From positions 3,968,001 through 4,032,000 of the forward strand of contig OZ251539.1 of NCBI GenBank assembly GCA_965243135.1: 64,000 nucleotides of DNA. The letters run 5' to 3'. Shown in pieces: positions 1-62,256 of the stretch (position 1 is its first letter; the number at the start of each line of letters is the position of its first letter). The position numbers were made by a program, and so were the translations under genes. Below the pieces are notes generated by a model. It was given only the letters and a program-made list of their open reading frames with translations, had not been told where the DNA came from and did not search any database. Origin of the DNA: Alphaproteobacteria bacterium (lineage in GTDB: Bacteria; Pseudomonadota; Alphaproteobacteria; MPNO01; UBA830).

Positions 1-1053
1 ATAGTCCAGCCGGTAGAGAGGCGCGTCCTCGTCCTGCTTCTCGTCGACGATGGTGAGGTAGCCGGTCTGGAACAAGAGCGCCTCGACAGGGATGCGGTCG
101 ACATCGATGGCCGACAGCAGCTCGTCGTCCGCGATCATGCCCTCCAAGGCGGGCGCCACGACCCGGCGCCGCGTCAGAAGGTCGGCGAGGAAGGTCGGCG
201 TGCCGCTCTGGAACCAGTACGGGCGGAACCTGCGCTTGTCGAACAGCAGCAGAATGTCGTGCGGGTTGTAGACCCTCTCCGGTCCGAGCCAGTTGTAGCC
301 GTTGTACCAGCGCCGGACCTCGTCCCGGTCCAGGCCCTCGAGTTCCGGGGCGAAGACCGCGTCCAGTTCGTCGTCCGTGTAGCCGCAGATGGCGCCGTAG
401 CGCTCGTCCAGCGTAATGTCGTTCAAGTTGTTCAGGCCCGAGAACAGGCCCGCCTGCGAGAACTTGCTCACCCCCGTCAGGAAAACGAAACGGAGCTGCT
501 CGTCGGAAGCCTTGATCACCCCGTACAGGCTGCGCAGGAAGTCGCGGTTGGCCAGCGCCAGTTCCCGGTCGCCGAGCGCATCCAGAATCGGCTTGTCGTA
601 TTCGTCCACCAGAACGACCGCCCGCCGCCCGGTGCGCTCGTGCAGGGCCTCGATCAACTCGTGGAAACGGACCGCCGTCCCGGCGGGGCCCGGTTCGAGG
701 CCGGCGCGCCTCTCCGTCGCCGCCAGTTGCCTTTCCACGGTTCCCCGAACCCCGTCCGGGGTGTCGAAATGGCCCACGCCGCTGAAATCCAGCCGCACGA
801 CCGGATGGCGCGCCGACCAGTCCCACTTGCCGTGCACGGCGAGGCCCCGGAACAGCTCCTCGCTTCCCTCGAACAGCTTCTGCAGCGTGTCCACCAGGAG
901 GCTCTTGCCGAACCGGCGCGGACGCGACAGGAAATAGTAATCGCCTCCTTCGACGAGTCTGCGCACATGGTCCGTCTTGTCGACGTAGTAGCAGTCCAGC
1001 CCCCGGATTTTCCTGAGGGAGGTCAAGCCGGTCGGAAGCATGCGTTTCGCCAT
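1..1053 (-). CDS. AAA-ATPase-like / PD-(D/E)XK nuclease family protein, copy 1 (3' end runs off the window)
   Basis: Reverse strand reads MAKRMLPTGLTSLRKIRG..YYVDKT..SRPRRFGKS (Walker A)..VVLVDEYDKP (Walker B); near-identical to copy 2 over ~1-890. Confidence 0.9.
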   Translation of the reverse strand, partial: MAKRMLPTGLTSLRKIRGLDCYYVDKTDHVRRLVEGGDYYFLSRPRRFGKSLLVDTLQKLFEGSEELFRGLAVHGKWDWSARHPVVRLDFSGVGHFDTPDGVRGTVERQLAATERRAGLEPGPAGTAVRFHELIEALHERTGRRAVVLVDEYDKPILDALGDRELALANRDFLRSLYGVIKASDEQLRFVFLTGVSKFSQAGLFSGLNNLNDITLDERYGAICGYTDDELDAVFAPELEGLDRDEVRRWYNGYNWLGPERVYNPHDILLLFDKRRFRPYWFQSGTPTFLADLLTRRRVVAPALEGMIADDELLSAIDVDRIPVEALLFQTGYLTIVDEKQDEDAPLYRLDY

Positions 1054-1059
1054 TCGCGC

Positions 1060-1088
1060 AGAGTAGGCCGCCATGCCGGAGCCGTCAA
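1060..1088 (-). promoter_or_regulatory. sigma70-type promoter, probably leaderless, of AAA copy 1
   Basis: TTGACG-N17-TACTCT-N6-ATG(1053); same geometry in copies 2, 4, 5 and 6. Confidence 0.65.
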
Positions 1089-1299
1089 GGAGGAGGCGGG
1101 GTTCGCAGGCCGAACGCCGGGCCGGAGTTCCCGCGCCGCGCGTCAGCGGCGCGTCCCGTCAAGCCGTCGGCGCGCAAGGCGGCGTCCCGGCGAAAACAAC
1201 GGCCGTCCTCAACGAGGAGCATGGCGGCCTGCCAGCGCCTTTCGCAGAAGCGCCGCCGCCTGCCGAAATGTCCAAACGGGCCGTCGGTGGTTCCCGATT
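1089..1299. repeat. Conserved inter-copy spacer of the AAA array (copy A)
   Basis: GGCGTCCCGGCGAAAACAACGGCCGTCCTCAACGAGGAGCATGGCGGCCTGC and flanks recur at ~3280 and, with substitutions, ~4990. Confidence 0.85.
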
Positions 1300-2841
1300 T
1301 CAGACGGTCTCGAATTCGAACCCGACGATGTTGCGCTCCTCCCGGCCGAACTCCACCCCGATCAGGTGGACCGGCACGCCCGGACGCCGGTACTTGTCCG
1401 CGTAGCCGCGCTCCTGCGCCAGCGCCCGCCCTTCCGGCTTCCCGTCCACGACCTTGAACTCGAACAGGTAGATGTCGCCGCCGTACAGGACCGTCAGGTT
1501 CGAGCGTCCGCGCGCCGTGCTCTCCTCCGCGCGGACCTCCATCCCCGCCGCCACGAAGTGCGAGTAGAACACGCTGGCATAGTGGCCCTCGTAGCCGGCC
1601 ATGCCCGTGTTCGCGTACCACTCGTTCGGAATGCTCGCCAGCAACGCCCGGAACTGCCGCTCGAGGCCCGCGAAGTCGTTCGTCCGCATCAGGCGGCGCA
1701 GTTCCCGGCTCTCCGCCGCGACCGCGACGTCCGGCGCCATCGCCTTCAGCAGGAGCGCGTTCAGGCTGCGCTTCACCTCCTGGTTCGGATAGTCCAGCCG
1801 GTAGAGAGGCGCGTCCTCGTCCTGCTTCTCGTCGACGATGGTCAGGTAGCCGGTCTGGAACAGCAGCGCCTCGACAGGGATGCGGTCGACATCGATGGCC
1901 GACAGCAGCTCGTCGTCCGCGATCATGCCCTCCAAGGCGGGCGCCACGACCCGGCGCCGCGTCAGAAGGTCGGCGAGAAAGGTCGGCGTGCCGCTCTGGA
2001 ACCAGTACGGGCGGAACCTGCGCTTGTCGAACAGCAGCAGGATGTCGTGCGGGTTGTAGACCCTCTCCGGTCCGAGCCAGTTGTAGCCGTTGTACCAGCG
2101 GCGGACCTCGTCCCGGTCCAGGCCCTCGAGTTCCGGGGCGAAGACCGCGTCCAGTTCCGCGTCCGTGTAGCCGCAGATGGCGCCGTAGCGCTCGTCCAGC
2201 GTGATGTCGTTCAAGTTGTTCAGGCCCGAGAACAGGCCCGCCTGCGAGAACTTGCTCACCCCCGTCAGGAAAACGAAACGGAGCTGCTCGTTGGAAGCCT
2301 TGATCACCCCGTACAGGCTGCGCAGGAAATCGCGGTTGGCCAGCGCCAGTTCCCGGTCGCCGAGCGCATCCAGAATCGGCTTGTCGTATTCGTCGACCAG
2401 AACGACCGCCCGCCGCCCGGTGCGCTCGTGCAGGGCCTCGATCAACTCGTGGAAACGGACCGCCGTCCCGGCGGGGCCCGGTTCGAGGCCGGCGCGCCTC
2501 TCCGTCGCCGCCAGTTGCCTTTCCACGGTTCCCCGAACCCCGTCCGGGGTGTCGAAACGGCCCACGCCGCTGAAATCCAGCCGCACGACCGGATGGCGCG
2601 CCGACCAGTCCCACTTGCCGTGCACGGCGAGGCCCCGGAACAGTTCCTCGCTTCCCTCGAACAGCTTCTGCAGCGTGTCCACCAGCAGGCTCTTGCCGAA
2701 CCGGCGCGGACGCGACAGGAAATAGTACTTGCCCCTCTCGACGAGGCGGCGCACATGGTCCGTCTTGTCGACGTAGTAGCAGTCCATCCCCCGGATCTCC
2801 CGCAGGGAGGAAATGCCGGTCGGAAGCATGCGTCTCGTCAT
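1300..2841 (-). CDS. AAA-ATPase-like / PD-(D/E)XK nuclease family protein, copy 2
   Basis: ORF 1300..3324 trimmed to ATG 2841 (MTRRMLPTG); RPRRFGKS, VDEYDKP, TGVSKFS, YNGY, LLFQTGYLTI, EGHY, RSNL..FEFK, ALAQ..GYADKY. Confidence 0.9.
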   Translation of the reverse strand: MTRRMLPTGISSLREIRGMDCYYVDKTDHVRRLVERGKYYFLSRPRRFGKSLLVDTLQKLFEGSEELFRGLAVHGKWDWSARHPVVRLDFSGVGRFDTPDGVRGTVERQLAATERRAGLEPGPAGTAVRFHELIEALHERTGRRAVVLVDEYDKPILDALGDRELALANRDFLRSLYGVIKASNEQLRFVFLTGVSKFSQAGLFSGLNNLNDITLDERYGAICGYTDAELDAVFAPELEGLDRDEVRRWYNGYNWLGPERVYNPHDILLLFDKRRFRPYWFQSGTPTFLADLLTRRRVVAPALEGMIADDELLSAIDVDRIPVEALLFQTGYLTIVDEKQDEDAPLYRLDYPNQEVKRSLNALLLKAMAPDVAVAAESRELRRLMRTNDFAGLERQFRALLASIPNEWYANTGMAGYEGHYASVFYSHFVAAGMEVRAEESTARGRSNLTVLYGGDIYLFEFKVVDGKPEGRALAQERGYADKYRRPGVPVHLIGVEFGREERNIVGFEFETV

Positions 2842-2847
2842 CCGAAG

Positions 2848-2876
2848 AGGGTAGGCCGCCATGCCGGAGCCGTCAA
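2848..2876 (-). promoter_or_regulatory. sigma70-type promoter, probably leaderless, of AAA copy 2
   Basis: TTGACG-N17-TACCCT-N6-ATG(2841). Confidence 0.65.
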
Positions 2877-3199
2877 GGAGGGGGAGGAGTCCGAGCCGCA
2901 TGCGCTGTTCGTAACGTCTTGAAATGCGGATAGCTTCCCGGGGTGCGGAATTTTTTTCCTCGGGTACGGAAAACTGCGAATTTTCCGCGCCGGGACCGCG
3001 ATTTTCGCAGATTCCACCCCACGGCCGGCCGGGCGCCGCCTCCCCGATTGACCGCCTGCGTCCAGGCCACGGCCCGGCTTGCACTGGGTTTGCGGCGCGG
3101 CAACACTCGCCTTTTATTCTGAAGACCGAGCACCCGCGAGGCCCTTGCGGGGCGGCGGCGGGCGGCGGGCCGACAAAAAATGGCACAGCGCAAACGGCT

Positions 3200-3398
3200 C
3201 GAGTCCGCCGGCCGAACGCCGGGCCGGAGTTCCTGCGCCGCGCCTCGGCGGCACGTCCCGCCAAGCCGTCGGCGCGCAAGGCGGCGTCCCGGCGAAAACA
3301 ACGGCCGTCCTCAACGAGGAGCATGGCGGCCTGCAGCGCGGCCTACCGGCGCCTTTCGCGGAGGCGCCGCCTGCGTCCGAACGGGACGGCTTCCGGCT
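3200..3398. repeat. Conserved inter-copy spacer (copy B)
   Basis: Homologous to 1089-1299 and 4910-5107. Confidence 0.85.
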
Positions 3399-4872
3399 TC
3401 AGACGGTCTCGAACTCGAACCCGACGATGTTGCGCTCCTCCCGGCTGAACTCGATCAGGTGGACCGGCACGCCCGGACGCCGGTACTTGTCCGCGTAGCC
3501 GCGCTCCCGAATCTGCGCCAGCGCCCGCTCTTCCGGCTTCCCGTCCGCGACCTTGAACTCGAACAGGTAGACGCCGACATCGTACAGAACCGCCAGGTCC
3601 GAGCGGCCGCGCGCCGTGCTCTCCTCGGCGCGGACGTCCATCCCCGCCGCCACGAAGTGCGAGTAGAACACTCTGGCATAGTGCGCCTCGTAGCCGGCCA
3701 TGCCCGTGTTCGCGTACCACTCGTTGCTCGCCAGGAACGCCCGGAACAGATTCTCGGGGCCTGCGAAGTCGTTCGCCCAGGCGGCGCAGATCCCGACTCT
3801 CCGCCTCGATCGGAACATCCGGCGCCATCGTCTCCAGCAGGAGCTCGTTGAGACTCCGCCTCACCTCCTGGTTCGGGTAGTCCAGCCGGTAGAGGCGCGC
3901 GTCCTCGTCTCGCTTCTCGTCGGCAATGGTCAAGTAGCCGGTCTGGAACAGAAGCGCCTCGACGGAAATGCGGTCGACGGCCGGCAGCAGCGAGTTGCCA
4001 GCGACCAGACCCTCCAAGGCCGGCGCCGCGACCCGGCGCCGCGCCAGAAGGTCTGCGTGCCGGTTCGGAACCAGTGCGCCTCGAACTCGCGAGTTCTGAA
4101 GAGAAGGAGGATGTCGAACGGGTTGTAGACCTTGTCCGCGCCGCGCCAGTTGTAGCCGTTGTACCAGCGCCGGACCTTCTCCCGATCCAGGCCCTCGAGT
4201 TCCGGGGCGAAGACCGCGTCCAGCTCCGCGTCGGTGTAGCCGCAGATGGTCGAGAATTCCGGCTCCAGCAGGTTGTTCAGGCCCGAGAACAGGCCCGCCT
4301 GCGAGAACTTGCTCACCCCCGTCAGGAAAACGAAACGGAGCTGCTCGTCGCAGTCCTTGATCATCGCGTAGAAGCCGCGCAGGAAGTTCCGGTTGGCCAT
4401 CGCCAGTTCCCGGTCGCGGAGCGCGTCCAGAATCGGCTTGTTCGTCCACCAGAACGACCGACCGCCGCCCGGTGCGCTCGTGCAGCGCAGCCGCCGGAAA
4501 CGGATCGACGCCTCGACAGGGTCGAGTTCGAGGCCGGCCAGCCGCTCCGTTTCCCCCAGCTGGTCTTCCACATCTTTCCGAACGAAGTCCGGGGTGTCGA
4601 AATTGCCGCCGCCGAAGCTGGTCCGCACGACGGCGCGCCGACCAGTCCCACCCATCGTGCACGGCGAGGCCCCGGAACAACTCCTCGCTCCCCAGCTTCT
4701 GCAGCGTGTCCACCAGGAGGGTCTTGCCGAACCGGCGCGGACGCGACAAGAAATAGTACCTGCCTCCTTCGACGAGTCTGCGCACATGGTCCGTCTTGTC
4801 GACGTAGTAGCAGTCCAGCTCCCGGATCGTCCGGAGGGAGGTCATGCCGGTCGGAAGCATGCGTTTCGCCAT
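3399..4872 (-). pseudogene. AAA-ATPase-like / PD-(D/E)XK protein, copy 3, multiply frameshifted
   Basis: Homology is split across ORFs 3343..4902, 3930..4787 and 3399..3818 by many small deletions; promoter spacer also shortened to 12 nt. Confidence 0.85.
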
Positions 4873-4909
4873 TCGCGCAGAGTAGGCCGCCATGCCCGTC
4901 AAGGAAAAG

Positions 4910-5107
4910 GCGGAGTTCGCCGAACGCCGGGCCTGGGTTCACGCGCCGCGCCTCGGCGGCGCGTCCCGTCAAGCCGTCGGCGCGCAAGGCGGCGGCCCGG
5001 CGGAAGCAACGCCCGTCCTCAACGAGAAGCATGGCGGCCTGCGACGCGGTTCGCCGGCGCCTTTCGCGGAGGCACCGCCTGCGTCCGAACGGGAACGGCT
5101 CCCAGAT
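4910..5107. repeat. Conserved inter-copy spacer (copy C)
   Basis: Homologous to 1089-1299 and 3200-3398. Confidence 0.85.
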
Positions 5108-6652
5108 TCAGACGGTCTCGAACTCGAACCTGACGATGTTGCGCTCTTCCCGGCCGAACTCCACCCCGATCAGATGGACCTGTACGCCCGGACGCCGGTA
5201 CTTGTCCGCGTAGCCGCGTTCCCGAATCTGCGCCAGCGCCCGGCCTTCCGGCTTCCCGTCCACGACCTTGAACTCGAACAGGTAGACGCCGACATCGTAC
5301 AGGACCGCAAGGTCCGAGCGGCCGCGCGCCGTGCTCTCCTCGGCGCGGACATCCATCCCCGCCGCCGCGAAGTGCGAATAGAACACGCTCGCGTAGTGCG
5401 CCTCGTAGCCAGCCATGCCCGTGTTCGCGTACCACTCGTTCGGAATGCTCGCCAGGAACGCCCGGAACAGATTCTCGAGGCCCGCGAAGTCGTTCGTCCG
5501 CATCAGGCGGCGCAGTTCCCGGCTCCCCGCCGCGACCGCGACGTCCGGCACCATCGCCTCCAGCAGGAGCGCGTTCAGGCTGCGCTTCACCTCATGGTTC
5601 GGGTAGTCCAGCCGGTAGAGGGGCGCGTCCTCGTCCTGCTTCTCGTCGACGATGGTCAGGTAGCCGGTCTGGAACAGCAGCGCCTCGACGGGAATGCGGT
5701 CGACGTCGATGGCCGACAGCAACGCGTCGTCCGCGAACATGCCCTCCAGGGCCGGCGCCGAGACCCGGCGCCGCGCCAGAAGGTCGACGAGGAAGGTCGG
5801 CGTGCCGCTCTGGAACCAGTACGGGCGGAATCTGCGCTTGTCGAACAGCAGCAGGATGTCGTGCGGATTGTAGACCCTCTCCGGTCCGAGCCAGTTGTAG
5901 CCGTTGTACCAGCGGCGGATCTCGTCCCGGTCCAGGCCCTCGAGTTCCGGGGCGAAGACCGCGTCCAGCTCCGCGTCCGTGTAGCCGCAGAGGGCGCCGT
6001 AGCGCTCGTCCAGCGTGATGTCGTTCAGGTTGTTCAGGCCCGAGAACAGGCCCGCCTGCGAGAACTTGCTCACGCCGGTAAGAAAGGCGAACCGGATATG
6101 CGCGTCGCAGTCCTTGACGACGCTGTAGAAGCCGCGCAGGAAGTCGCGGTTGGCCCGCGCCAGTTCCCGGTCGCCGAGCGCGTCCAGGATCGGCTTGTCG
6201 TACTCGTCCACCAGCACAACCGCGCGCCGCCCGGTGCGCTCGTGCAGTTCGGAGATCAGATGGTGAAGGCGGTCGGAGGCGTCCGGGTAGCCGCATTGGA
6301 CGCCGGCGCGCTTTTCGGCGGCGTCGAGCTGCATCATCGCGTTCCTGTGCAGCCGGTCGGGGTCGCCGAGACTGCCGGAACCGAAGCTGATCCGCACGAC
6401 CGGACAGCGCACCGACCAGTCCCACCCGTCGTGCACGGCGAGGCCCCGGAACAGCTCCTCGCTTCCCTCGAACAACTCCTGCAGCGTGTCCACCAGCAGG
6501 CTCTTGCCGAACCGGCGCGGACGCGACAGGAAATAGTACTTGCCCCTCTCGACGAGGCGGCGCACATGGTCCGTCTTGTCGACGTAGTAGCAGTCCATCC
6601 CCCGGATCTCCCGTAGGGAGGAAATGCCGGTCGGAAGCATGCGTCTCACCAT
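5108..6652 (-). CDS. AAA-ATPase-like / PD-(D/E)XK nuclease family protein, copy 4
   Basis: Intact ORF from MVRRMLPTG; Walker A/B; RSDL..FEFK nuclease motif. Confidence 0.92.
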   Translation of the reverse strand: MVRRMLPTGISSLREIRGMDCYYVDKTDHVRRLVERGKYYFLSRPRRFGKSLLVDTLQELFEGSEELFRGLAVHDGWDWSVRCPVVRISFGSGSLGDPDRLHRNAMMQLDAAEKRAGVQCGYPDASDRLHHLISELHERTGRRAVVLVDEYDKPILDALGDRELARANRDFLRGFYSVVKDCDAHIRFAFLTGVSKFSQAGLFSGLNNLNDITLDERYGALCGYTDAELDAVFAPELEGLDRDEIRRWYNGYNWLGPERVYNPHDILLLFDKRRFRPYWFQSGTPTFLVDLLARRRVSAPALEGMFADDALLSAIDVDRIPVEALLFQTGYLTIVDEKQDEDAPLYRLDYPNHEVKRSLNALLLEAMVPDVAVAAGSRELRRLMRTNDFAGLENLFRAFLASIPNEWYANTGMAGYEAHYASVFYSHFAAAGMDVRAEESTARGRSDLAVLYDVGVYLFEFKVVDGKPEGRALAQIRERGYADKYRRPGVQVHLIGVEFGREERNIVRFEFETV

Positions 6653-6658
6653 CCGAAG

Positions 6659-6687
6659 AGGGTAGGCCGCCATGCCGGAACCGTCAA
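6659..6687 (-). promoter_or_regulatory. sigma70-type promoter, probably leaderless, of AAA copy 4
   Basis: TTGACG-N17-TACCCT-N6-ATG(6652). Confidence 0.65.
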
Positions 6688-6703
6688 GGAGGAGCATCAT
6701 TAA

Positions 6704-6875
6704 TGTCAGTAACAGATGATATGTCCGGACGCTTCCAGACCAAGAAGGCGGCGTCGGACGGAACAGCGACAGGAACCGGGGAAGGAGGTGTCGCGCCCAT
6801 GCGCCGAGCCAGGGCGAGGCGGCGGAGATACTGGGCGTCGCACCTTCCGGCGCCGGTGTGACGAGGCGGAGGGAA
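6704..6875 (+). mobile_element. Left end and heavily deleted transposase 5' remnant of an ISNCY/IS1202-like element
   Basis: End TGTCAGTAACAGATGATATGTCCGG; RBS AAGGAGG and ATG 6799; peptide scraps SQGEAAEILGV, RTFRRRCD and EAEG resemble the transposase N-terminal HTH; matching inverted end at 62287-62311. Confidence 0.65.
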
Positions 6876-7021
6876 AGGAATTCCTCCTCCCCGAAGAGTC
6901 CGGAAATCCCCGTTTCCCGCTTCGCGAGCGACGAATCGGGAGCATCAGTCGACCCTCAGGAAGCGCTTCGTCGTCGCCGGGAAACGCGCGTTCTCGGCTT
7001 CGCCGCCAGCTCTCCGGACAA

Positions 7022-7490
7022 TCAGGCATTGGGCCTCGCTTTCATAAGCACGTGAACGGCGAATGCGCGCCGATCCTTGGCGGGCGCTTTGGAGAAACGG
7101 GTAATCGCCCTCCGCACACGCTGGATGTCTCACTTCGGACTTGCAAAAAGGGAATTCCGGGTCGTAATCCGCGAGGTGACGCCTGCGCTGCAACCAGATG
7201 AACGTTTCGGCGAAGTCCCGTATCGCGACAGGAAACTTTTGCATGACTTGGGCTCCGCACCGACTTTTTGCATGACCGTGCTCAAGGGCGCGGTATACTT
7301 GGAGCCATGCCGCTTGACTTCGTTTCGCGCCGGAGCCGCCAGTCAAGGTATTTGCACAAGTCCAAGCCAAGCAATGGAACAAGGCGTAGTACGCGGAGCT
7401 CGTGGCGCGACAAAGGTTCGTCCGCCTCGGCCTACCATGGCTTATTTCCACCAGATCGGTGGCGATCTGCAGGAGATCGTTAGGCCGCAA
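7022..7490 (-). pseudogene. HEPN-domain protein (putative toxin), frameshift near 7130
   Basis: RATSSAYYALFH and RRHLADYD motifs; the likely C-terminus DIQRVRRAITRFSKAPAKDRRAFAVHVLMKARPNA* is in a second frame ending at 7022. Confidence 0.7.
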
Positions 7491-10781: not shown

Positions 10782-13700
10782 TCAGGACAGCGGCGCCAGC
10801 AGCGCGTCCACGTCCTCCGCGGACAACTGCCCCGTGGCATTGGTTTTCACGACGCCCCCCATCAGCGCCCGCTTGCGATCCTGCAACTCGAGGATTCTCT
10901 CCTCCACCGTGCCCATCGTAAGGAGCCTGTAGACGAAAACCGGCTTGTCCTGCCCGATCCGGTGGGCGCGGTCGGTCGCCTGCGCCTCCACCGACGGATT
11001 CCACCAGGGATCGTAATGGATCACCGTGTCGGCCGCCGTCAGGTTCAGTCCGGTGCCTCCCGCCTTGAGGCTGATCAGGAACAGGGGAACGCTTCCCGAC
11101 TGGAATTCCCGCACCACGGAAGCGCGGTCGCGGGTGTTGCCGACCAGCTTGACGAAATCGATCTCCCGCTCCCGCAAGCCGCCTTCGATCAGCTCCAGCA
11201 TGCTGGTGAACTGCGAGAACAACAGAATGCGCCGCCCTTCCTCGATGAGCTCGGGCAGCATCTCCATCAGGCGCGACAGCTTGGCGGACTGCGCGTTCCT
11301 GGCCTCGGGGCGGTTCTTGACGAGCCGCGGGTCGCAGCACACCTGCCGCAGCCGCAGCAACGCCTCGAGGATGATGATGTGGCTGCGCGCCATGCCCTTG
11401 TTCGCGATTTCGCGCCGGACCTTCTCGTGCATCGCCAGCCGAATGATTTCGTAGAGATCCCTCTGGGCCCCGCCCATCTCCACGTGCTCGACGATGTCGG
11501 TCTTGCTGGGCAGGTCGGCCGCCACGTCCTCCTTGAGGCGCCGCAGCAGGAACGGAGCGACGCGCCGCCCGAGAAACGATCTCCGCCCCGCGTCGCCATG
11601 CTTTTCGATCGGCGTGCGAAACGCCTTCCTGAACTGCCTCTCGTCGCCGAGCAGGCCGGGCATCAGGAAGTCGAACTGGGACCACAGATCGCCCAGGTGG
11701 TTCTCCATCGGCGTGCCCGTCAGCGTGACGCGGTATCTCGACTTCAGCTGCCTGGCGGTGCGGGCGATCTTGGTCCGGGAATTCTTGATCGCCTGCGCCT
11801 CGTCGAGAATCACGAGGTAGTAGGTCGTCGCCAGAAGTTCGGCCTGATCGCGCGGCAACAACGGATAGGTGGTCAGGACGACGTCGTGGCCGGCGATTTC
11901 GCCGAACCGGCCCTTGCGGTCGGCGCCGTGAAGGGTCAGGACCTTGAGGCCGGGCGCGAACCGTTCGATCTCGATCCGCCAGTTCGCCATGAGGCTGGTC
12001 GGCGCGACGATGAGGCACGGCCCGTCCATGCGGCCGGATTCCTTTTCGACCAGAATGTGGGCGATGGCTTGGATGGTCTTGCCGAGCCCCATGTCGTCGG
12101 CGAGGATCCCGCCGAACGCGAACTCCCTGAGAAACTGCAGCCAGTTCAGCCCCGCCTGCTGGTAGGGCCGCAAGGCGCCCCGGAAGGAAGCCGGCACGGG
12201 CGCTTCCGCGATGCTCCGCAAAGCGCGCAGTTTGCGCCCGGTCTCGACGAGCGACAACCCGCCGTTCCACCGGAGATCGGTCGACTCGAGTTCGCGCTCG
12301 AGATCGGCGATCTCCGCCGCCTGGCGGGCGTGAACGGGAATCCGTCCCTGGTCGTCGAGTCCGTTGACCCGAAAGAGATCGCACAGGGTGGCCAGCATCG
12401 GCCGGAGCCGCGCCATGGGAAGGGGAAGCAGCTTGCCGCTGTCCATGCTCATGTAAACGTTGCCGTCCCCCGCCCCCTCGAGGAAGGCTTCGAAGTCTTC
12501 GTCAGTCGGGAATTCGTCGAGCAGTTGCATCAGAAACGGCATGAGGTTGACCTTCTCGCCGTCGACGATCACGCCGAGAGAGAAACCGAACCAGTCGATT
12601 CCGCTCCCCTCCTCGACTTCGGCGTGCCATTCGTCCTCGACCTGCGCGATCGCCAGCGGATAGTCCTCGCTGACCTCGACGCGCCATCCTTCGGCCTCGA
12701 GTTCGGGAAGGCCGTTCTCGAAAAAGTAAAGCAGGGATCTCGTCATGTCGCCGTGGCCGTTCATGACGAGATCGCGGTTCCCGTGGAAACCCGCGCCGGG
12801 CGAACGCCGGGGGCTGACGCCCAGGTCGACGTCGCGGAGCCAGGAGCCGAGGGGCACGAAACCGAACTCGGCCAGGCGCCGGTAGGCCTCGTCCTCGAAT
12901 TTCCGGTCCCGGGAGACCACGATCAGGTCGCCGTCTTCGTGGATCGCCTTCGACAGCGCGTCGTCGCCCGGCTCGAAACGGCAATGGCCGTAATCGAAAC
13001 CGGCGCGAGCCACCGGCAAGCGGTACAGTTCCAGGTCCCAGCGGTTGGAATACATCTCGATCTCCGTCTGGGCGAGATTCAGGAACGGAACCGGGCGAAC
13101 GTCCGCTTCCCTGACGGCGGCGAACGTCTTGGGCATCGGGACGATGCCGGCGGGGAACCGCGTCTCGATTTCCCTCCGCGCCGCCGCCGCGGATTCCGGG
13201 GAGATGGGCGGCGCGTTCGCCAGTGTCGCGGCCTGCTTCGGCGGCATTCCGAGGTCCACGACGCCGCAGGAGGCGTTCTCCGCGTCGACGTACCGCAGCG
13301 GCGCCACCGGCAGGATGCAGGTAGCCGGGGGATCCGAAAGGATGCGCAGATGCTGCGCGCCCGTTTCCACGACCTCCCATTCCAGCGTCCCCTTGCGGGA
13401 CGGGCCCGGCAACAGCGGCGGGCCCTCGATTTCGCCCCAACAGCATCTGCCGGTCTGCAGGATCAGCGCCAGGATGTCGTGCCCCTCTTCGTCGTGCAGC
13501 GGATAGCCGGCGCCCGGCGGATCGTATTTCAACGCGCGGGCGCCGGCTATCCGCGAAATGATCCGGGTGTCGATCGATTTCAGATACTTCGGAACAGGTC
13601 CGCGATCGAGCGCGAAGACATCGTAATCGCGGGGCTTTCCGAGACTGTCGTCCTTTCGCAACCGGGCCGTCTTCAGCCACGCGCGAACCTCCGGCTTGCC

Positions 13701-14141: not shown

Positions 14142-14394
14142 GGGAAACCCCTATATCTTGCGGCTCCTCCAAAGAATAACCGAATCGCCCCCCACCATAG
14201 AATGCTTTGCGGCCTTCGAAATTCCGCTTTCCCCCAGCCGAGCCCACCCTGTCCACAGAAAATTTCCGCCGCGGGCGAAAAATCTGTTGCCCTCAGCGTT
14301 TGGCGATATATGGTAGAAATGAATTTGCAATACACCGAATGTAGAAATTCCTGTCGCAAAGCGGTACAAGGCAACGACAAGAGGAGAAAAGACG

Positions 14395-38886: not shown

Positions 38887-39549
38887 CCTCGCGGAGCCGA
38901 TTGAGACGGTCCAGACTGCAACGGGAAGCGGATAGCCTGTTACAGCTTGTAATCTCCTGAATGCCTCGTGAACCAGTCACCGATTAAAATCGTGTTTCGC
39001 CGCGTCCAGAAATCGCCGCCCGAGGATCGCGTCAACGGCAGGCCGTTCCGCCTTCTTTCCCGCCGGATCCATTGCCTGCGCCGCCAGTAATTCGACGATA
39101 TTCGGACGACGTTGCGCCGGAAGCGTTTCCGTACCGCAGGAAAGGACCGGTCTCCACTGCGGCGCGGTCCAGCAAAAATGGCGTTCCTGCGGGACTGCGC
39201 CGGAGACGCGGATGCCGTCCGGCTCATTTCGATGCAGCGAGAGGCGACGCCGTCGTTTTCGGCGCTTCGGCATCGTGCGAGGTCAGGGTCCTGCCTGTCC
39301 TTCGGCAGCGCCGCCAAGCCAAGAACACATCGTCGTCCGAACTGCGTAGTGGCGCGGCGCAGGCTGGAGGCCGACCTGCATCATGCGGCCGATCCGTTCC
39401 GTCTCCCGGCGAGCGGTCTCGAAGTCGGAGCCCCCATGTCGCGAGAAACGGCAAGAGCGAACGCCGGGACGGCGGCGTCGCCGAAACCGGCTCCGTCCGC
39501 ATTCGCCGCACGAACGCCGGATGGAACGCTCCACCCGGCAAAACAGACC

Positions 39550-49990: not shown

Positions 49991-52900
49991 TCAGAATTGG
50001 CGGACGAGACGCAATTCGGCGCGATTGCGGTCGTAGTGATAAAGCTGCGCGTTGGATTTTCGGACCTCGTTCGCCAGAACGAGCTGCGGGCTGAAGCCCC
50101 ATACGGTAAACGCCCGGTTGAAGGCCGAGACGCTCAAGACGCCGACCCGATCTCTTCGGGACGCCCCGTCCGGAGTGAACGGCCACCAGCGGCCCCGGTA
50201 TTCCGTCCTCCGCAATTCGGCGTTCCCGCCGAACGTGAAGCCGAACGGAACCGCGACGGCGACGCCGGCCCGCGCCCAACGCGAAGAATTGCGCCATACC
50301 GGCGAAGCCGGACGCTCGCGGGCGTAGCCCTGCCCTGTGAACACAAACAAGGCTCTGGACAGAGACAATCGATTCGCGTATTCACCAAGACGCCATGGAT
50401 ACGCAGAATCTTGTCAAGCAACGCCTGAGCACGCCTGAGGCATTGCAGCGGGTCGGCGGATTACTGTCTGCCGAACCGCAACTTTCGCGAGCCGAACTCA
50501 GCCGCAGGGTTTGTCACGAGTTCGGCTTTTTCGATGCCCGCGGGCGTCCGCAGATCAGTAGTTGCAACGCGGCTCTTGGCGTTCTCGCGACGGACGGACG
50601 GATTGCTCTGCCGCCACCGCGAGGAAGCGGAGGCCGCCGGGTGCGCCGCAACCCGGAACCGGTGCCGCCCGCGGTAGACGTTCCCGAACGGGTGGATCTC
50701 ATCGAGGAGCTACAGTTGGTCCCGGTGCAGAACCCTGCACAGAGCGCAATCTGGAACGAATTGATGATCACGGAACACCCCCTCGGCAAGGCGGTGCTGG
50801 TTGGTTATCAGTGCCGTTATCTCGTGGGTTCGTCCCATGGCTGGCTCGGCGCGGTGGGTTTTGCCGCCTCGGCGCGGCGCCTGGCGGCGCGCGACAACTG
50901 GATCGGCTGGGACGACAAGACGCGGGAGCGGCGCCTTCACCGCATCGTCGGGCTGAACCGCTTTCTGATCCGGCCCGGCGTCGAGTGCCGCAATCTCGCG
51001 TCACAGGTGTTGAGCATGTCGCTGACGACGATGGCGCAGGACTTCGAGGAACGCTACGGCCATCGCCCCTGGTTGGTGGAGACCTTTGTCGACCCGGCGC
51101 ATCACCTAGGGATCTCGCTCCGCGCGGCGAACTGGACGCATGTGGGCGCAACTCGCGGACGCGGCCGGCAGGACCGGAAAGGACTGGCGGCCGAGTCCAT
51201 GAAAGAGATATACATGTACGAGCTCGAACCGGGTTGCCGGGCAACGCTGAGCGCCCGGCCGGCCCTCCCGGTGCCGGTCGGCGAAGGGCTGTCGCGCGAG
51301 TGCTGGGCCGAGAACGAGTTCGGAGGTGCGCCGTTGGGAGACAAGCGTCTGGCGAAGCGCCTGGTCGACAGTGCCCATGCCCAGGCGGAGGCACCGCACG
51401 CTCCCTTCTCGGTAGCGGCGGGCGGAAACATGGCGGCAGTGACGGGGTTTTACCGCCTGCCGTCCGCGAGACGAGCCGGGGGCGGTCACGCCGGAAAACA
51501 TCCTGACGCCGCACAAGGAGCGCACGCTCGGGCGAATGCAGACACGGGATACGGTTCTGTGCCTTCAGGACGGCACCGACCTGAACTTCGCCACGCGTGC
51601 GCAGTGCGACGACCTGGGCGTAATTGGGCACAACCAGACCAGCGCCAAGACCGCCGGACTTCATCTGCACACGACGATGGCGGTGGATGACGCCGGCTTG
51701 CCGCTGGGTCTGCTGAAGCTCGAGTTCGACGCGCCTCGGCCGGGCAAGGACAAGCTGCCGGAAGAACGCAAGTCGGCACGGTGGCTTCGAGGGCTGCGCG
51801 AATGCGCCGAGGCGGCCCGGCGGCTCGAAGGTACGCAACTGGTCAGCGTGATGGACCGGGAAGCGGACTTCTTCGAAATGTTCGCCGAGCAGCGGCGTCT
51901 CGGCAATATCGACATTCTGGTGCGCGCCAAGCACAGCCGGAAGTTGTCGAAAACGGAGAAGCTGTTCGACAGCGTCCGCGCCGCGCCGGTTCAAGGGCAC
52001 CGGAAACTTACGGTCTCGCGCCTGAGCCAACGGCCCAAGGTCAGCAAACGCAAGGCGACGAACGGGCGCAAGGAACGCGTCGCCGACATGGAGATTCGGA
52101 CCGTCTCTCTGCCGCCGACGTCGGGCGGAACCGCGCCGCTTCCCGTTCAGGTCGTTCACATCAGCGAGCCGAAGCCGCCGGAAGGGGCCAAACCGGTCGA
52201 ATGGTTCCTGCTTACCACGGTCGCCGTTTCGTCCGTCGAAGACGCCATGCGGGTCGTGGGTTGGTACGCCCTGAGATGGCGCATCGAAGACTGGCATCGC
52301 ACGCTGAAGTCCGGGTGCAAGGTCGAAGAAACGGGCCACCGCACCGCAGCGCGCCTCGAACGCGTGATTGCGATCAACGCAGTCATCGCATGGCGCGTCA
52401 TGCTGATGGCGCTGCTGGCGCGCGAGACGCCGGACGTCCCCGCCGGGCTCATGTTCTCGGACATGGAACTGCTCGTCATCGAAGACTACGCGACGAAACT
52501 GCCGAGAACGCCGAAGCCGAGGACGCTCAAAGAAGCGGTGCTGATCGTCGCCATCATGGCCGGCTACCGCAACCGCAAGCACGACCCGCCGCCCGGCCAT
52601 CAGAAAATCTGGCAGGGTTATTCCTATCTCTCCGGCTATTGTCAGGCATACGAGGATCTGGCGGAAATCAAGAAATCGGGACGATCGCATCCCCTGCTCA
52701 GTCCAGAAGGGGATTTGTGATGACAGGGCAGGCGTAGCCGGCCTCCATGTCGATCCGCAAAGTCTGCGTCGCGCGCCAGACGGCGACGAGCGCAGCGTCC
52801 ATGATCGGCCCGTCGAACCGCCGGTCGTCCCGCCGATGCTCGCGTCGATGCCAGGATGCCTGCGCCCGCACCGTCCATCGCCGGTCGAGGCGGCGCTTGA

Positions 52901-55964: not shown

Positions 55965-55993
55965 TTGACGGCTCCGGCATGGCTGCCTACCCT
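55965..55993 (+). promoter_or_regulatory. sigma70-type promoter, probably leaderless, of AAA copy 5
   Basis: TTGACG-N17-TACCCT-N6-ATG(56000). Confidence 0.65.
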
Positions 55994-55999
55994 CGCCGA

Positions 56000-57535
56000 A
56001 TGGTGAAACGCATGCTTCCGACCGGCATGACCTCTCTCCGCAAAATCCGGACGAGGGATTGCTACTATGTCGACAAGACGGACCATGTGCGCCGTCTCGT
56101 CGAAGGGGGCGATTACTATTTCCTGTCGCGTCCGCGCCGGTTCGGCAAGACCCTCCTGGTGGACACGCTGCAAGAGCTGTTCGAGGGAAACGAGGAGTTG
56201 TTCCGGGGCCTCGCCGTCCACGGCAGGTGGGACTGGTCGGCGCGCCATCCGGTCGTGCGGCTCAGCTTCGGCGGGCGCAATTTCGTCGTCCCGGACCGCG
56301 TTCGAAAAGATGTGGAGGACCAGCTGGGCGAGACGGAGCGGCTGGCCGGCCTCGAACCAGGCGCTGGCGAGGCGGCGGTCCGTTTCCGGCGCCTGATAAG
56401 GACGCTGCACGAGCGCACCGGGCAGCGGGCGGTCGTGCTGGTGGACGAGTACGACAAGCCGATTCTGGACGCGCTCGGCGACCGGGAACTGGCGCTGGCC
56501 AACCGCGGCCTCCTGCGCGATCTGTACGGGGTGCTCAAGGACTGCGACGAGCATCTCCGTTTCGTTTTCCTGACGGGCGTGAGCAAGTTCTCGCATGCGG
56601 GCCTGTTCTCGGGCCTGAACAACCTGATCGACATCACGCTGGAACCGGAGTTCTCGGACATCTGCGGCTGCACGGACGCGGAACTGGACGCGGTCTTCGC
56701 CCCGGAACTCGAGGGCCTGGACCGGGACGAGGTCCGCCGCTGGTACAACGGCTACAACTGGCGCGGGCCGGAGAGGGTCTACAACCCGTTCGGCCTGCTG
56801 CTGCTGTTTCGGCGGCGCGAGTTCCGCCCGTACTGGTTCCAGAGCGGCACGCCGACCTTCCTGGTCGAGACGCTGGCGCGCCGCGACCTGCCCACCCCGG
56901 ATCTGGACGGCATGACCGGCAGCGAGAGCCTGCTTTCGTCCGTCGACGTGGACAATATCTCGATCGAGGCGCTTCTGTTCCAGACCGGCTACCTCACCAT
57001 CGCGGGCGAGGAGGACGGGCGCTACAGGCTGGACTACCCGAACCTCGAGGTGCGCCAGAGCCTGGGAGAGGCCCTGCTGGGAGAACTGCTCCCGGCCGAG
57101 GCGCGCAAGAAGACGGAGCGCCTACAGCTGAGCGAGCTTCTGGAGGCGAACGACTTCGAGCGCCTCGGGACCCTGTTCCGCGGCGTCTTCGCCGCCATCC
57201 CGCACCAGTGGTACGCGAATAGTCCGGTCGCAAAGTACGAGGCCCATTACGCGAGCGTCATCCATAGCTGCTTCCTGATGGAGGGCTTCGAGCCGGTGGC
57301 CGAGGACAGCGGCAGCCTGGGGCGCGCCGACATGGCGATCCGCGCCGGCGGGCGCGTCTACCTGTTCGAGTTCAAGGTGGTGGAGCGCGGGCGGGAGGGG
57401 ATCGCGCTCGCGCAGTTGCGGGAGAAGGGCTACGCGGACAAGTACCGCCATCTCGGGCGTTCGGTGCACCTGATCGGGGTGGAGTTCAGCCGCGAGGAGC
57501 GCAACGTCGTCGGGTTCGATTGCGAGGCCGCCTGA
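56000..57535 (+). CDS. AAA-ATPase-like / PD-(D/E)XK nuclease family protein, copy 5 (divergent C-terminal half)
   Basis: RPRRFGKT, VDEYDKP, EAHY, GRADM..FEFK. Confidence 0.92.
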   Translation: MVKRMLPTGMTSLRKIRTRDCYYVDKTDHVRRLVEGGDYYFLSRPRRFGKTLLVDTLQELFEGNEELFRGLAVHGRWDWSARHPVVRLSFGGRNFVVPDRVRKDVEDQLGETERLAGLEPGAGEAAVRFRRLIRTLHERTGQRAVVLVDEYDKPILDALGDRELALANRGLLRDLYGVLKDCDEHLRFVFLTGVSKFSHAGLFSGLNNLIDITLEPEFSDICGCTDAELDAVFAPELEGLDRDEVRRWYNGYNWRGPERVYNPFGLLLLFRRREFRPYWFQSGTPTFLVETLARRDLPTPDLDGMTGSESLLSSVDVDNISIEALLFQTGYLTIAGEEDGRYRLDYPNLEVRQSLGEALLGELLPAEARKKTERLQLSELLEANDFERLGTLFRGVFAAIPHQWYANSPVAKYEAHYASVIHSCFLMEGFEPVAEDSGSLGRADMAIRAGGRVYLFEFKVVERGREGIALAQLREKGYADKYRHLGRSVHLIGVEFSREERNVVGFDCEAA

Positions 57536-59750: not shown

Positions 59751-59759
59751 CGCCGAGAA

Positions 59760-60049: not shown

Positions 60050-60078
60050 TTGACGGTTCCGACGCGGCTGCCTACTCT
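60050..60078 (+). promoter_or_regulatory. sigma70-type promoter, probably leaderless, of AAA copy 6
   Basis: TTGACG-N17-TACTCT-N6-ATG(60085). Confidence 0.65.
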
Positions 60079-60084
60079 CGCCGA

Positions 60085-61620
60085 ATGGCGAAACGCATGC
60101 TCGGCTTTTCCTCCCTCCGGGAGATCCGGGGGATGGACTGCTACTACGTCGACAAGACGGACCATGCGCGCCGCCTCGTCGAGAGGGGCAAGTACTATTT
60201 CCTGTCGCGTCCGCGCCGGTTCGGCAAGAGCCTGCTGGTGGACACACTGCAGGAGTTGTTCGAAGGAAGCGAGGAGCTGTTCCGGGGCCTCGCCGTGCAC
60301 GGCGGGTGGGACTGGTCGGCGCGCCATCCGGTCGTGCGGCTGGATTTCAGCAGAGGGGGCGATTTCCGCGCCCCGGACGGGGTTCGCGTCTCCGTGGAAA
60401 GGCAACTGGCGGCGGCGGAAAGGCGCGCCGGCCTCGAACCGTGCCTCGTCGAAGCGTCGGTTCGTTTCTGGGAATTGATCGAGGCCCTGCACGAGCGCAC
60501 CGGGCGGCGCGTGGTCGTGCTGGTCGACGAATACGACAAGCCGATCCTGGACGCGCTCGGCGACCGGGAACTGGCACTGGCCAACCGCGACTTCCTGCGC
60601 AGCTTGTACGGGGTGATCAAGGCCTGCGACAGGCAGCTGCGTTTCGTTTTCCTGACGGGGGTGAGCAAATTCTCGCAGGCGGGCCTGTTCTCGGGCCTGA
60701 ACAACCTGATCGACGTCACGCTGGAGCCGGAGTTCTCGGACATCTGCGGCTACACGGACGCGGAACTGGACGCGGTCTTCGCCCCGGAACTCGAGGGCCT
60801 GGATCGGGACGAGATCCGCCGCTGGTACAACGGCTACAACTGGCGAGGCGCGGAGAAACTCTACAACCCGTACGATGTCCTGCTGCTTTTCCGGCGCCGC
60901 GAGTTCGAGGAGCACTGGTTCCGGACCGGCACGCCGACCTTCCTCGCCGACCTTCTGTCGCGGCGCGGGGTCGCGGCACCGGACCTGGAGGGCATGATCG
61001 CGGACGACGAGCTGCTCTCGACCTTCGACGTCGACGACATCTCGACCGAGGCGCTTTTGTTCCAGACCGGCTATCTGACCATCGTCGGCGAGGAGATGGA
61101 CGACGACGTGCGCCTCTACCGGCTGGACTACCCGAACCAGGAGGTGAGGCGCAGCCTGAACGCGCTCCTGCTGGAGGCGATGGCGCCGGACGTCGCGACC
61201 GCGGCGGAGAGCCAGGAGTTGCGCCGCCTGATGCGCGCGAACGACTTCGCGGGCCTCAAGCGGCAGTTCCGGGCATTGCTGGCGAGCATCCCCAACGAGT
61301 GGTACGCGAACACGGGCCTGGCGGGGGCACACTACGCGAGCGTGCTCTATTCGCACTTCGCGGCGGCGGGGATGGACGTCCGCGCGGAGGAGAGCACGGC
61401 ACGCGGCCGCTCGGACCTGACGGTCCTGTACGGCGGCGGCGTCTACCTGTTCGAGTTCAAGGTCGCGGACGGGAAGCCGCAAGGCCGGGCGCTGGCGCAG
61501 ATCCGGGAGCGCGGCTACGCGGACAAGTACCGGCGTCCGGGCGTGCCGGTCCATCTGATCGGGGTGGAGTTCGGCCGCGAAGAGCGCAACATCGTCGGGT
61601 TCGAGTTCGAGACCGCCTGA
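60085..61620 (+). CDS. AAA-ATPase-like / PD-(D/E)XK nuclease family protein, copy 6 (two small in-frame deletions)
   Basis: Walker A/B intact, RSDL..FEFK; lacks PT near the N-terminus and YE before AHY. Confidence 0.88.
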   Translation: MAKRMLGFSSLREIRGMDCYYVDKTDHARRLVERGKYYFLSRPRRFGKSLLVDTLQELFEGSEELFRGLAVHGGWDWSARHPVVRLDFSRGGDFRAPDGVRVSVERQLAAAERRAGLEPCLVEASVRFWELIEALHERTGRRVVVLVDEYDKPILDALGDRELALANRDFLRSLYGVIKACDRQLRFVFLTGVSKFSQAGLFSGLNNLIDVTLEPEFSDICGYTDAELDAVFAPELEGLDRDEIRRWYNGYNWRGAEKLYNPYDVLLLFRRREFEEHWFRTGTPTFLADLLSRRGVAAPDLEGMIADDELLSTFDVDDISTEALLFQTGYLTIVGEEMDDDVRLYRLDYPNQEVRRSLNALLLEAMAPDVATAAESQELRRLMRANDFAGLKRQFRALLASIPNEWYANTGLAGAHYASVLYSHFAAAGMDVRAEESTARGRSDLTVLYGGGVYLFEFKVADGKPQGRALAQIRERGYADKYRRPGVPVHLIGVEFGREERNIVGFEFETA

Positions 61621-62078
61621 AGCCGGGAGCCATCCCGTTCGGACATTTCGGCGAGCGGCGCCCCCGCGAAAGGCGACGGCCGCCACTGTCGCTTTCCGGA
61701 GCCGGAACCCCGCGGTTCCGGGCACCGCGGCCGGGCGGCGATGCCAGCCATGCACCGCGTCTGGCGGGTCGCGCGCCTGGACGCCGAAATCGGCCTCCGG
61801 CTCGACGCCGCGACCGTGGGCCGTTTGCGGCACCGACAGCCGCTCGCTCACCAACAATCTCCCGCACCGGAGTGCGGGCGGCCGGGGCGCCGCGCAGCGG
61901 CTTTCGGCTTGCGCACCCGAAGGCGCGACGTTCGCACTTGCGCACGGCGACCGTGTCGGGCTGGTCGGCGCGAACGGCGGAACCGGCCGCCGCCTTCGAC
62001 GAAGCGCAAGCCGGGCCCGCGACGCAGGCGGCGGCCTTTCGCGGAGGCGGCTGTCGAAATGTCCGAACGGAAAACCGT

Positions 62079-62256
62079 TCAGGCGGCCTCGCAACCCGAC
62101 GACGTTGCGCTCTTCGCGGCTGAACTCCACCAAGTGGACCGAACGACGCCGGTACTTGTCCGCGTAGCCCATCTCCCGCAGCTGCGCGAGCGCGACCCCC
62201 TCCCGCCCGCGCTCCACCACCTTGAACTCGAACAGGTAGACGCGCCCGCCGGCGGC
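62079..62256 (-). pseudogene. C-terminal fragment of an AAA/PD-(D/E)XK gene (copy 7, copy-5 type)
   Basis: AGGRVYLFEFKVVERGREGVALAQLREMGYADKY..EFSREERNVVG. Confidence 0.85.

Follow-up and report, generated by a model that had tools for sequence, protein, structure and literature searches.

The DUF1703 family was described by Knizewski et al. (2007; PMC1913061), who reported its atypical Walker A (RPRRFGKS) and Walker B (DEYD) motifs, both of which recur in the proteins discussed here, and who had linked its N-terminal region to PF01637. A lineage-specific expansion of the family is known from Cardinium hertigii cCpun, whose genome holds 25 DUF1703 paralogs with a mean amino acid (aa) identity of 39%, among which recombination was shown with RDP4 and the pairwise homoplasy index (PHI); that paper gives their function as unknown and reports that only 9.8% of species hold at least 10 DUF1703 copies (Siozios et al. 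2019; PMC6387759). A literature search on sponge symbionts and the DUF1703 family returned this paper as its only relevant find. Presented here is a 64,000-nucleotide (nt) stretch of an alphaproteobacterial genome of the UBA830 lineage (contig OZ251539.1, positions 3,968,001 to 4,032,000; hereafter the window), with the mosaic family of DUF1703 genes to which its seven copies belong. The likeness to Cardinium extends to the architecture, PF09820 followed by PF08011, and to a lineage-specific expansion after likely horizontal transfer, as far as the Cardinium account describes it. In contrast to the 25 paralogs of that reduced endosymbiont, the free-standing 6.1-Mb genome considered here holds 166 loci, of which 98 are full-length with a median identity of 71%, and the modules into which their exchange can be resolved stand close to linkage equilibrium with respect to three C-terminal lineages. 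Paralog expansion with recombination is thus already published for DUF1703 in Cardinium (Siozios et al. 2019; PMC6387759), and the present case is a new, very large example in which the exchange is unusually well resolved.

The source genome is a single contig of 6.10 Mb, and the window, with a GC content of 67%, carries its DUF1703 genes in the neighbourhood of GcrA, ribonucleotide reductase, DksA, spermidine synthase and CoA-ligases; these flanking genes have a DNA match of about 73%, or none, in genomes of the same genus. The presence of GcrA is indicative of an alphaproteobacterium. All four in-frame window proteins tested match PF09820 (AAA-ATPase_like; E 1e-55 to 2e-60, 188-204 bits, cut-off 26.1), and copies 4, 5 and 6 match PF08011 (PDDEXK_9) at the C-terminus (E 8e-16 to 6e-20, 58-72 bits, cut-off 25.5). 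On these profile matches, the window genes are classed as members of the DUF1703 family of Knizewski et al. (2007; PMC1913061). The original prediction, drawn from the DNA letters and their translations, had counted seven block-shuffled ATPase-nuclease paralogs here and proposed a diversifying defence repertoire. Seven copies are indeed found where it had placed them (Table 1), and five of these are intact; copy 3, however, is a pseudogene and copy 7 only a C-terminal fragment. Its assignment of alternative motifs to copies can be read directly from the translations of copies 1, 2, 4, 5 and 6, including TSLR/EGG.YYF versus SSLREIRGM/ERGKYYF at the N-terminus, four versions of the segment following VVR, DERYGA versus EPEFS, RPYWFQSG versus E.HWFRTG, and ENLFRAFL versus RQFRALL. 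In copy 3, the motifs it named fall in shifted frames.

A tblastn search of the whole genome with copy 4 yielded the catalogue of 166 loci, occupying 221,950 bp or 3.6% of the genome; a first look had given 198 PF09820 candidates. The loci comprise 98 full-length copies in one alignment, 28 that are full-length but broken, and 40 fragments, and they are distributed over 83 places, 49 of them singletons and 34 arrays of 2-12 copies (27 with all copies on the same strand). Among the 98 full-length copies, one is frameshifted in its C-terminal part, and a divergent pair shows 41-45% identity to the others. Pairwise aa identity is bimodal, with 60-75% between lineages and 80-95% within, and the nearest neighbour of a copy is 80-98% identical (median 91.9%), no pair exceeding 98%. 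The Walker A motif RPRRFGKS is kept in 98/98 full-length copies and DEYD in 96/98, the exceptions being the divergent pair, while the nuclease E-x-K is present in 96/98 and G[RK]xD in 92/98; D443, E456 and K458 are near-invariant across 99 diverse relatives. Of the 41 genomes searched, 5 contain PF09820, the source genome included; the other same-genus genomes gave 0, 1, 9 and 23 matches (the 9 being half-matches of about five copies), with 9 more in one genome of the same order. The family is very large, with 17,353 clusters (50% identity) matching at E <= 0.001; 51 of 72,556 plasmid records and 27 metagenomic phage-labelled records carry relatives. The divergent pair is a tandem on the minus strand (G000:C1:1565071-1568752) that differs from all other copies in its upstream region and Walker B motif as well, and looks like a separate lineage, either older or separately acquired.

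The mosaic structure of the family is apparent from an alignment of 96 intact copies, from which the divergent pair was dropped and codon columns with at least 10% gaps were removed, leaving 503 of 689. Painting of 120-nt windows by cluster reveals three C-terminal lineages of 50, 33 and 11 copies together with two singletons, and the alleles of N-terminal windows recur in all three. A PHI-type statistic, computed with a four-gamete version of our own from 366 biallelic informative sites, each compared to its neighbours up to 20 sites away, was 0.411 against 0.532 +/- 0.005 after permutation, with 0 of 1000 permutations as low, and site incompatibility rises from 0.35 at less than 10 nt to 0.60 beyond 480 nt. 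When distance matrices of 20-codon windows are correlated, aa 281-503 behave as a single linked block (r 0.7-0.9; the C block), whereas the ATPase half is divided into small blocks that are uncorrelated with aa 281-503 and with one another. Chief among these is block A (aa 81-140), the main shuffled module, for which 14 allele classes are distinguished. Its mutual information with C-terminal lineage is 0.276, compared to 0.195 +/- 0.034 when shuffled, and with block B1 (aa 201-220) it is 0.111 compared to 0.153. The block alleles are close to linkage equilibrium, and the independent assortment of variable blocks that had been proposed from the window copies is therefore nearly, if not perfectly, borne out genome-wide. 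The trees of blocks A and B cost 1476-5317 log-likelihood units when imposed on the C-block data, and trees from other parts of the C block 397-1261 units, although it counts against the argument that the approximately unbiased (AU) test rejects every foreign tree, also within the linked C block, and because AU p-values reject there too, only the size of the likelihood loss is informative.

The points of exchange lie where the copies remain alike. A Viterbi copying model with a switch penalty equal to 6 mismatches placed 0-5 switches in each copy (mean 2.5) in 215 distinct intervals, and the switch points peak at nt 121-270, 541-600 and 811-840, which are conserved stretches beside the variable blocks. 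An example is visible in the window itself, where copy 2 follows copy 4 over its first 40 codons (98-100% nt identity, compared to 87-88% with copy 1), whereas from aa 41 on it is 97-100% identical to copy 1; in block A, its identity to copy 4 falls to 60-68%. For copies 4, 5 and 6, the best donor in the genome switches about every 150 nt, at 93-99% identity. Long near-identical stretches are a feature of the N-terminal half (nt distance 0.06-0.12), and the C-terminal halves of different lineages are further apart (0.22-0.30); copy 5, of lineage 1, shares only 53-75% nt identity with copies 1, 4 and 6 in 9 of the 10 twenty-codon windows of aa 281-480, the exception being aa 321-340 with 80-82%. 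Ordinary identity-dependent gene conversion is the simplest mechanism of this shuffling. Exchange at the constant blocks had been proposed from the window copies, and it is supported by the PHI-type test, the switch points and the copy 2 tract. On these comparisons, there is little reason to doubt that the family is mosaic by gene conversion.

Selective constraint is likewise distributed in blocks. The ratio of nonsynonymous to synonymous divergence (dN/dS), estimated in 20-codon windows by a pairwise Nei-Gojobori count that is crude and ignores recombination, is 0.12-0.34 where a window holds catalytic or other conserved motifs; block A reaches 0.55-0.84, and aa 361-380 reach 1.26. The ratio is thus raised in the variable blocks, yet below 1 in block A. 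Synonymous divergence (dS) is low throughout the N-terminal half outside block A (0.16-0.28). A second case is provided by a sister species, G004, with 19 intact copies that are about 59% identical to copy 4 and that in every block are nearer to one another than to any copy of the source genome; the two expansions are thus either independent or fully homogenised. Recombination is evident there as well (PHI-type statistic 0.29 against 0.447 +/- 0.005, 0 of 1000 permutations as low), and diversity is again highest at aa 101-140 and 361-380, the same regions as in the source genome.

A search of the Protein Data Bank (PDB) by sequence found no relative (best E 0.41). An AlphaFold2 model of copy 4 was built with 98 diverse relatives (predicted local distance difference test score, pLDDT, 94.2; predicted template-modelling score, pTM, 0.92). 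Its architecture places an ATPase of Arch_ATPase/STAND/Orc-like type and a winged-helix region ahead of a PD-(D/E)XK nuclease. Residues 1-357 of the model, the ATPase/winged-helix part, best match the archaeal proteins PAB2304 (2qen) and SSO1545 (2fna), chains of about 350 residues, with a Z score of 16.1 over 279 aligned residues (root-mean-square deviation, rmsd, 3.6-3.9) at 10-14% sequence identity. To our knowledge, the function of PAB2304 and SSO1545 is also unknown. The nucleotide-binding, helical and winged-helix core of STAND and nucleotide-binding leucine-rich repeat (NLR) proteins aligns as well, over model residues 7-366, with Z scores of 13.3 for CED-4, 13.0 for Apaf-1, 13.2 for NRC4 and 11.5 for Avs3; the STAND/NLR core fold is thus present at Z 11.5-13.3, though the Arch_ATPase proteins score higher, and further ATPase matches include Orc2 (Z 12.7) and BrxC (Z 11.6). 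For the C-terminal domain (model residues 299-510), the best match is the nuclease of Wolbachia CidB (7fiv_B; Z 12.5, rmsd 2.7, 143 aligned residues). Block A lies between Walker A and Walker B and folds in the model as a β-strand with a helical hairpin (strand 81-85, loop, helix 94-112, loop, helix 121-136), just before the Walker B strand at 140-145. In Orc1/Cdc6-type ATPases, a helical insert at about the place of block A touches DNA.

Comparison with better known systems points to likeness in parts only. Avs proteins also carry nuclease effectors; here, however, the nuclease lies at the C-terminus instead of the N-terminus, and the C-terminal repeat sensor of the STAND/NLR class is lacking. 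As judged from the model, the DUF1703 copies would at most work like STAND/NLR switches and not be members of that class. The C-terminal domain shares the PD-(D/E)XK fold with the CidB and CinB nucleases at 14-16% sequence identity, but CidB and CinB have tandem nuclease domains and no ATPase, and differences in the core motif were noted by Siozios et al. (2019; PMC6387759). A survey of 24 longer proteins (E <= 1e-20) found the whole DUF1703 module fused elsewhere to TIR_2, to Metallophos, to NACHT with pentapeptide repeats, to Metallophos with NACHT and FGE-sulfatase, to nSTAND1/AAA_16, to TPR arrays and to LRR-Roc-COR-TIR, and NB-ARC-like parts also occur among the fusion partners. By analogy, such partners are company typical of NLR-like conflict proteins, and sensor-type repeats occur only in these longer fused relatives.

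The copies also share an upstream element. Homology between copies starts sharply about 45 nt ahead of the start codon, at TTGAC[GCA]-N16-18-TA[CT][CT][CG]T, and this 38-nt motif is found in 85 of the 98 full-length copies, with the ATG always 6 nt downstream (for the window copies, see Table 1). From its sequence, it looks like a putative promoter giving a leaderless mRNA. The start of this motif is the sole sharp border common to the copies, as on either side of the gene the homology to distant copies stops at distances that vary continuously, between 0 and at least 500 nt; the copies thus have no transposon-like ends. Terminal inverted repeats were considered and rejected, the match between the 5' border and the region after the stop codon being only 9-11 nt in GC-rich DNA, judged by eye. 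Of the hallmarks of transposable elements, neither defined ends nor near-identical recent copies are seen. Plant NLR clusters, pilE/pilS and vlsE are multigene families diversified by gene conversion, and the present family resembles them in that segmental conversion among many paralogs recombines variable segments flanked by conserved ones. In cassette systems of antigenic variation, however, promoterless silent donors supply one expression site, whereas here most copies have a motif and start codon of their own, and the predicted products are cytoplasmic enzymes instead of surface antigens.

The best explanation of these features is that the family evolves by duplication, decay and pervasive short-tract gene conversion, with exchange occurring where copies remain alike, such that small modules of the ATPase half are reshuffled among three diverged C-terminal lineages. 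Ordinary homologous recombination would suffice for this shuffling and dedicated diversifying machinery would be unnecessary. Each protein may then be a self-contained NLR-like switch, whose variable surfaces would read a ligand from an invading element, leading to ATP-dependent assembly and then to DNA cutting by the nuclease, and the shuffled repertoire would widen the range of recognition. Taken whole, shuffling and switch role together, this account appears to us evenly poised between right and wrong. That the family is an NLR-like sensor-nuclease repertoire, a claim drawn by analogy, is put forward tentatively and with slightly less than even confidence. In its favour are the fold and the nuclease, the range of fusions, expansions that are patchy and specific to lineages, and two hypervariable regions that recur; an immune role in particular is favoured by the combination of a STAND/Orc-like fold with a nuclease, by the NLR-type fusions and by the raised dN/dS of the variable blocks.

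Several observations weigh against this account. PADLOC-DB 2.0 returned no family for either of the two copies tested (copies 4 and 5; E <= 0.01), the NCBIfam models gave no match for the window proteins tested, and Pfam identified no repeat-type sensor domain (TPR, LRR or WD40) in a chain that ends with its nuclease. The window copies reside among housekeeping and metabolic genes, outside any defence island, and 68 of the 166 loci (41%) are broken or partial. The dN/dS of block A, on the same crude count, stays below 1. The -10 box of the upstream motif is poor (3/6), and a simple sigma-70 scan called no promoter in window 1-7200. Furthermore, DUF1703 also expands in intracellular symbionts, which are considered to face little pressure from phages (Siozios et al. 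2019; PMC6387759).

Two alternatives would dispense with a sensing role, and each is regarded as unlikely. The DUF1703 copies could be a selfish gene family that spreads through homing-endonuclease-like or addiction-like behaviour, the mosaicism being a by-product of recombination between copies. Such a family might well come to occupy 83 places among housekeeping genes, leave its 68 broken or partial loci behind, vary from 0 to about 166 copies within a genus, travel on the occasional plasmid or phage-labelled record and carry its own upstream motif with each copy. A mobile element of this kind is difficult to reconcile with flank homology of every length from 0 to at least 500 nt, on either side, which marks no defined ends, with an only candidate inverted repeat of 9-11 nt in GC-rich DNA that was judged by eye without shuffles, and with the retention of catalytic motifs in nearly all 98 full-length copies; the absence of near-identical copies (maximum 98% aa, median nearest 91.9%) is also unlike a recent transposition burst. 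The second possibility, given the same low weight, is neutral concerted evolution of proteins with an ordinary, non-variable role in DNA processing or with none. At such a copy number, ectopic gene conversion would be bound to produce mosaics, and the variable blocks would be no more than the loops under least constraint. Exchange limited to regions of high identity, with switch points that peak in conserved stretches, is what identity-dependent recombination predicts; the dN/dS of block A below 1 also speaks for this reading, and the low dS of the N-terminal half (0.16-0.28 outside block A) is consistent with homogenisation. However, homogenisation would not be expected to leave about 14 deeply diverged block A classes persisting near equilibrium across lineages, nor to render the same two regions hypervariable in the independent G004 expansion, and about 97 copies retain open frames and catalytic motifs.

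More remote is the idea that the proteins are host-directed effectors, exported nucleases acting on a host or on competitors, which we consider improbable. It was suggested for the DUF1703 proteins of Cardinium cCpun, which are predicted to be secreted (Siozios et al. 2019; PMC6387759), and a host-associated life is possible for the present organism since its DNA occurs in runs labelled sponge metagenome (X5). The present proteins, however, open at once with the conserved ATPase core, only 4-5 residues ahead of the family-wide LP.G motif, which leaves no room for a signal peptide (no predictor was run), and the architecture of ATP switch and nuclease, like the NLR-type fusions, points to an intracellular role. 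It is hardly credible, finally, that the chimeras and small deletions are artefacts of collapsed or mis-polished repeats. The family is highly repetitive, and short-read contigs from four runs break into pieces of 60-690 nt, none of which spans a whole gene. Nonetheless, contigs of X1 and X6, which stem from two studies, contain spacers specific to the arrays and parts of copy 3 with 4 of its 10 deletions, all without differences, spacer pieces recur in run X5 with 0 or 1 difference, and the same mosaic statistics are obtained from the separate genome G004; moreover, deletions of 5-6 nt are unlike the 1-nt homopolymer errors typical of long reads.

Should the DUF1703 family indeed be an NLR-like sensor-nuclease repertoire, bacteria would have a counterpart of the plant NLR clusters, which are likewise expanded and shuffled by conversion. 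In any case, about a hundred intact paralogs with near-randomly recombined modules constitute a natural experiment on a very large, uncharacterised family, one that displays what varies (the helical hairpin lying between the two Walker motifs, and aa 361-380) and what never varies. Given the repeat of the pattern in the sister species and the fusions, the NLR-like sensing role is open to direct test by swaps of block A.

A separate lead, to a mutational or genome-defence process, is offered by the manner in which copies are broken. Aligned with their nearest intact paralogs, the 28 broken copies display 139 deletions and 22 insertions, and 114 of the deletions are of 5 nt (46) or 6 nt (68), with just eight of 1 nt; the most-deleted copy has 17 deletions, 15 of which are of 5-7 nt. 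Ordinary small indels do not account for this decay. Copy 3 of the window has lost 71 nt in total relative to its nearest intact paralog, at window positions 4692, 4631, 4487, 4440, 4267, 4046, 3973, 3777, 3724 and 3455, and these deletions are not assembly errors, because the X1 and X6 contigs cover four of the sites without a gap. Deletion sites recur across lineages, sometimes with other sizes or offsets, at coding sequence (cds) positions of about 239, 442, 458, 586, 933 and 1140, and further at about 1198, 1221, 1236, 1250, 1460 and 1500; such recurrence across lineages argues for repeated events at hot spots. Intact copies share the tendency in a form that preserves the frame, with 56 gaps of six nt and only 2, 1 and 1 of 4, 5 and 7 nt, many of the six-nt gaps lying at or near deletion sites of the dead copies. 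In the window, two codons (IR) are missing from copy 2 near 1413, at a site where 6-nt deletions recur, and copy 6 has twice lost 6 nt in frame, near 60102 and near 61327. In the same-genus genome G002, all four DUF1703 copies fetched (4/4) are frameshifted at about aa 100, at cds ~239, the commonest hot spot of the source genome.

The deleted segments have a GC content of 55%, compared to 68% in their flanks, and the dinucleotide AT is 4-fold enriched in them (43 of 71 unique events, 10.6 expected), with 38 of the 71 placeable to begin with AT on one strand. Among the six-nt gaps of the intact copies, 16/56 are AT-anchored versus 84/1000 controls. AT is a preference and not the sole determinant, for only 7.9% of AT sites in the partners of dead copies are touched, versus 1.4-3.7% for other dinucleotides. 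The signature extends to other repeated DNA: group II intron copies carry 23 deletions of 5 nt and 25 of 6 nt, three other genomic copies of a Tn5-like transposase found in the window carry 27 and 15, and other repeats genome-wide have 84 and 46, compared to 24 of 4 nt and 9 of 7 nt. In these other repeats, 85/130 such deletions can be placed to begin with AT, versus 61/650 nearby control segments. Slippage is rejected as the source, since microhomology is just 0-1 nt in 55 of the 71 unique events, and NucS-type mismatch cutting with Ku end-joining was likewise set aside, as the genome gave no Ku match and NucS_C matched only partially, at 33.8 bits, with one weaker hit. Nor do the hot spots appear to serve as cut sites that initiate conversion, for no association was found (circular-shift p = 0.71, Spearman -0.08).

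Among the 15 of 20 papers listed by a literature search on 5/6-bp deletions in repeated bacterial DNA, none describes such a signature. The genome, and probably the genus, could possess a DNA-processing activity, as yet undescribed, by which exactly 5 or 6 bp are excised from repeated DNA, with a preference for starting at AT; we regard this possibility as less likely than not. By analogy, such removal may be a repeat-directed genome defence, a counterpart in spirit to the repeat-induced point mutation (RIP) of fungi, or it may be the signature of an unrecognised cut-and-rejoin or repair pathway. Alternatively, deletions of 5-6 nt may be a general indel signature of neutral DNA in this lineage, instead of a repeat-directed process.

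Table 1. Coordinates of DUF1703 copies, their upstream motifs and other features; positions refer to the window unless a genome position is given
Feature	Position	Strand	Details
Copy 1, DUF1703 gene	1..1053	-	N-terminal 351 codons in window, remainder past window start; whole and intact at genome level; C-terminal lineage 2
Upstream motif, copy 1	1051..1088	-	TTGACG, 17 nt, TACTCT, 6 nt, ATG
Copy 2	1300..2841	-	intact, 513 aa
Short conversion tract, copy 2	2713..2832	-	first 40 codons match copy 4, not copy 1
Upstream motif and ATG, copy 2	2839..2876	-	motif conserved
Copy 3, pseudogene	3343..4880 (approximate)	-	10 deletions of 5-13 nt
Copy 4	5108..6652	-	intact, 514 aa; protein of the structure model
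Upstream motif and ATG, copy 4	6650..6687	-	motif conserved
SNF2-family helicase	10782-14150	-	1122 aa; adjoins GcrA; long N-terminal region without Pfam match
Transposase-like open reading frame (ORF)	50341-52720	+	DruA-like region and Tnp_DNA_bind, plus second ORF without Pfam match
Upstream motif and ATG, copy 5	55965..56002	+	motif conserved
Copy 5	56000..57535	+	intact, 511 aa; C-terminal lineage 1
Upstream motif and ATG, copy 6	60050..60087	+	motif conserved
Copy 6	60085..61620	+	intact, 511 aa; C-terminal lineage 2
Copy 7	62098..62256	-	C-terminal nuclease fragment only, about 50-60 codons
Group II intron	G000:C1:1150730-1151571		about 840 nt, too short for a reverse-transcriptase ORF
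Other intron loci	near 1934-1936, 2665-2670, 2889-2891, 3618-3620 and 4119-4121 kb of genome

Six DUF1703 copies of the genome are interrupted by a group II intron in the conserved LLFQTGYLT site (Table 1). Its Rfam matches are group-II-D1D4-4 (D1-D4; 77 bits) and Intron_gpII (domains 5-6; 51 bits), and about 20 more intron-related pieces are scattered elsewhere in the genome. All six have a common identity profile, so that they may equally well have arisen by duplication of a single copy with its intron as by repeated homing.

Of the remaining parts of the window, positions 34000-39000 have a GC content of 58-62% and encode an ORF with a Fic-like C-terminal domain, a DSP-PTPase of the PTP-SAK or polymorphic-toxin-type phosphatase kind, an ADP-ribosylglycohydrolase and several ORFs without Pfam match; this segment may be a small foreign island. 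Near the end of the window, a segment of about 79 nt (63730-63808) is 100% identical in the same-genus genomes G002 and G003 while its flanks have diverged, and is probably a putative tRNA gene.

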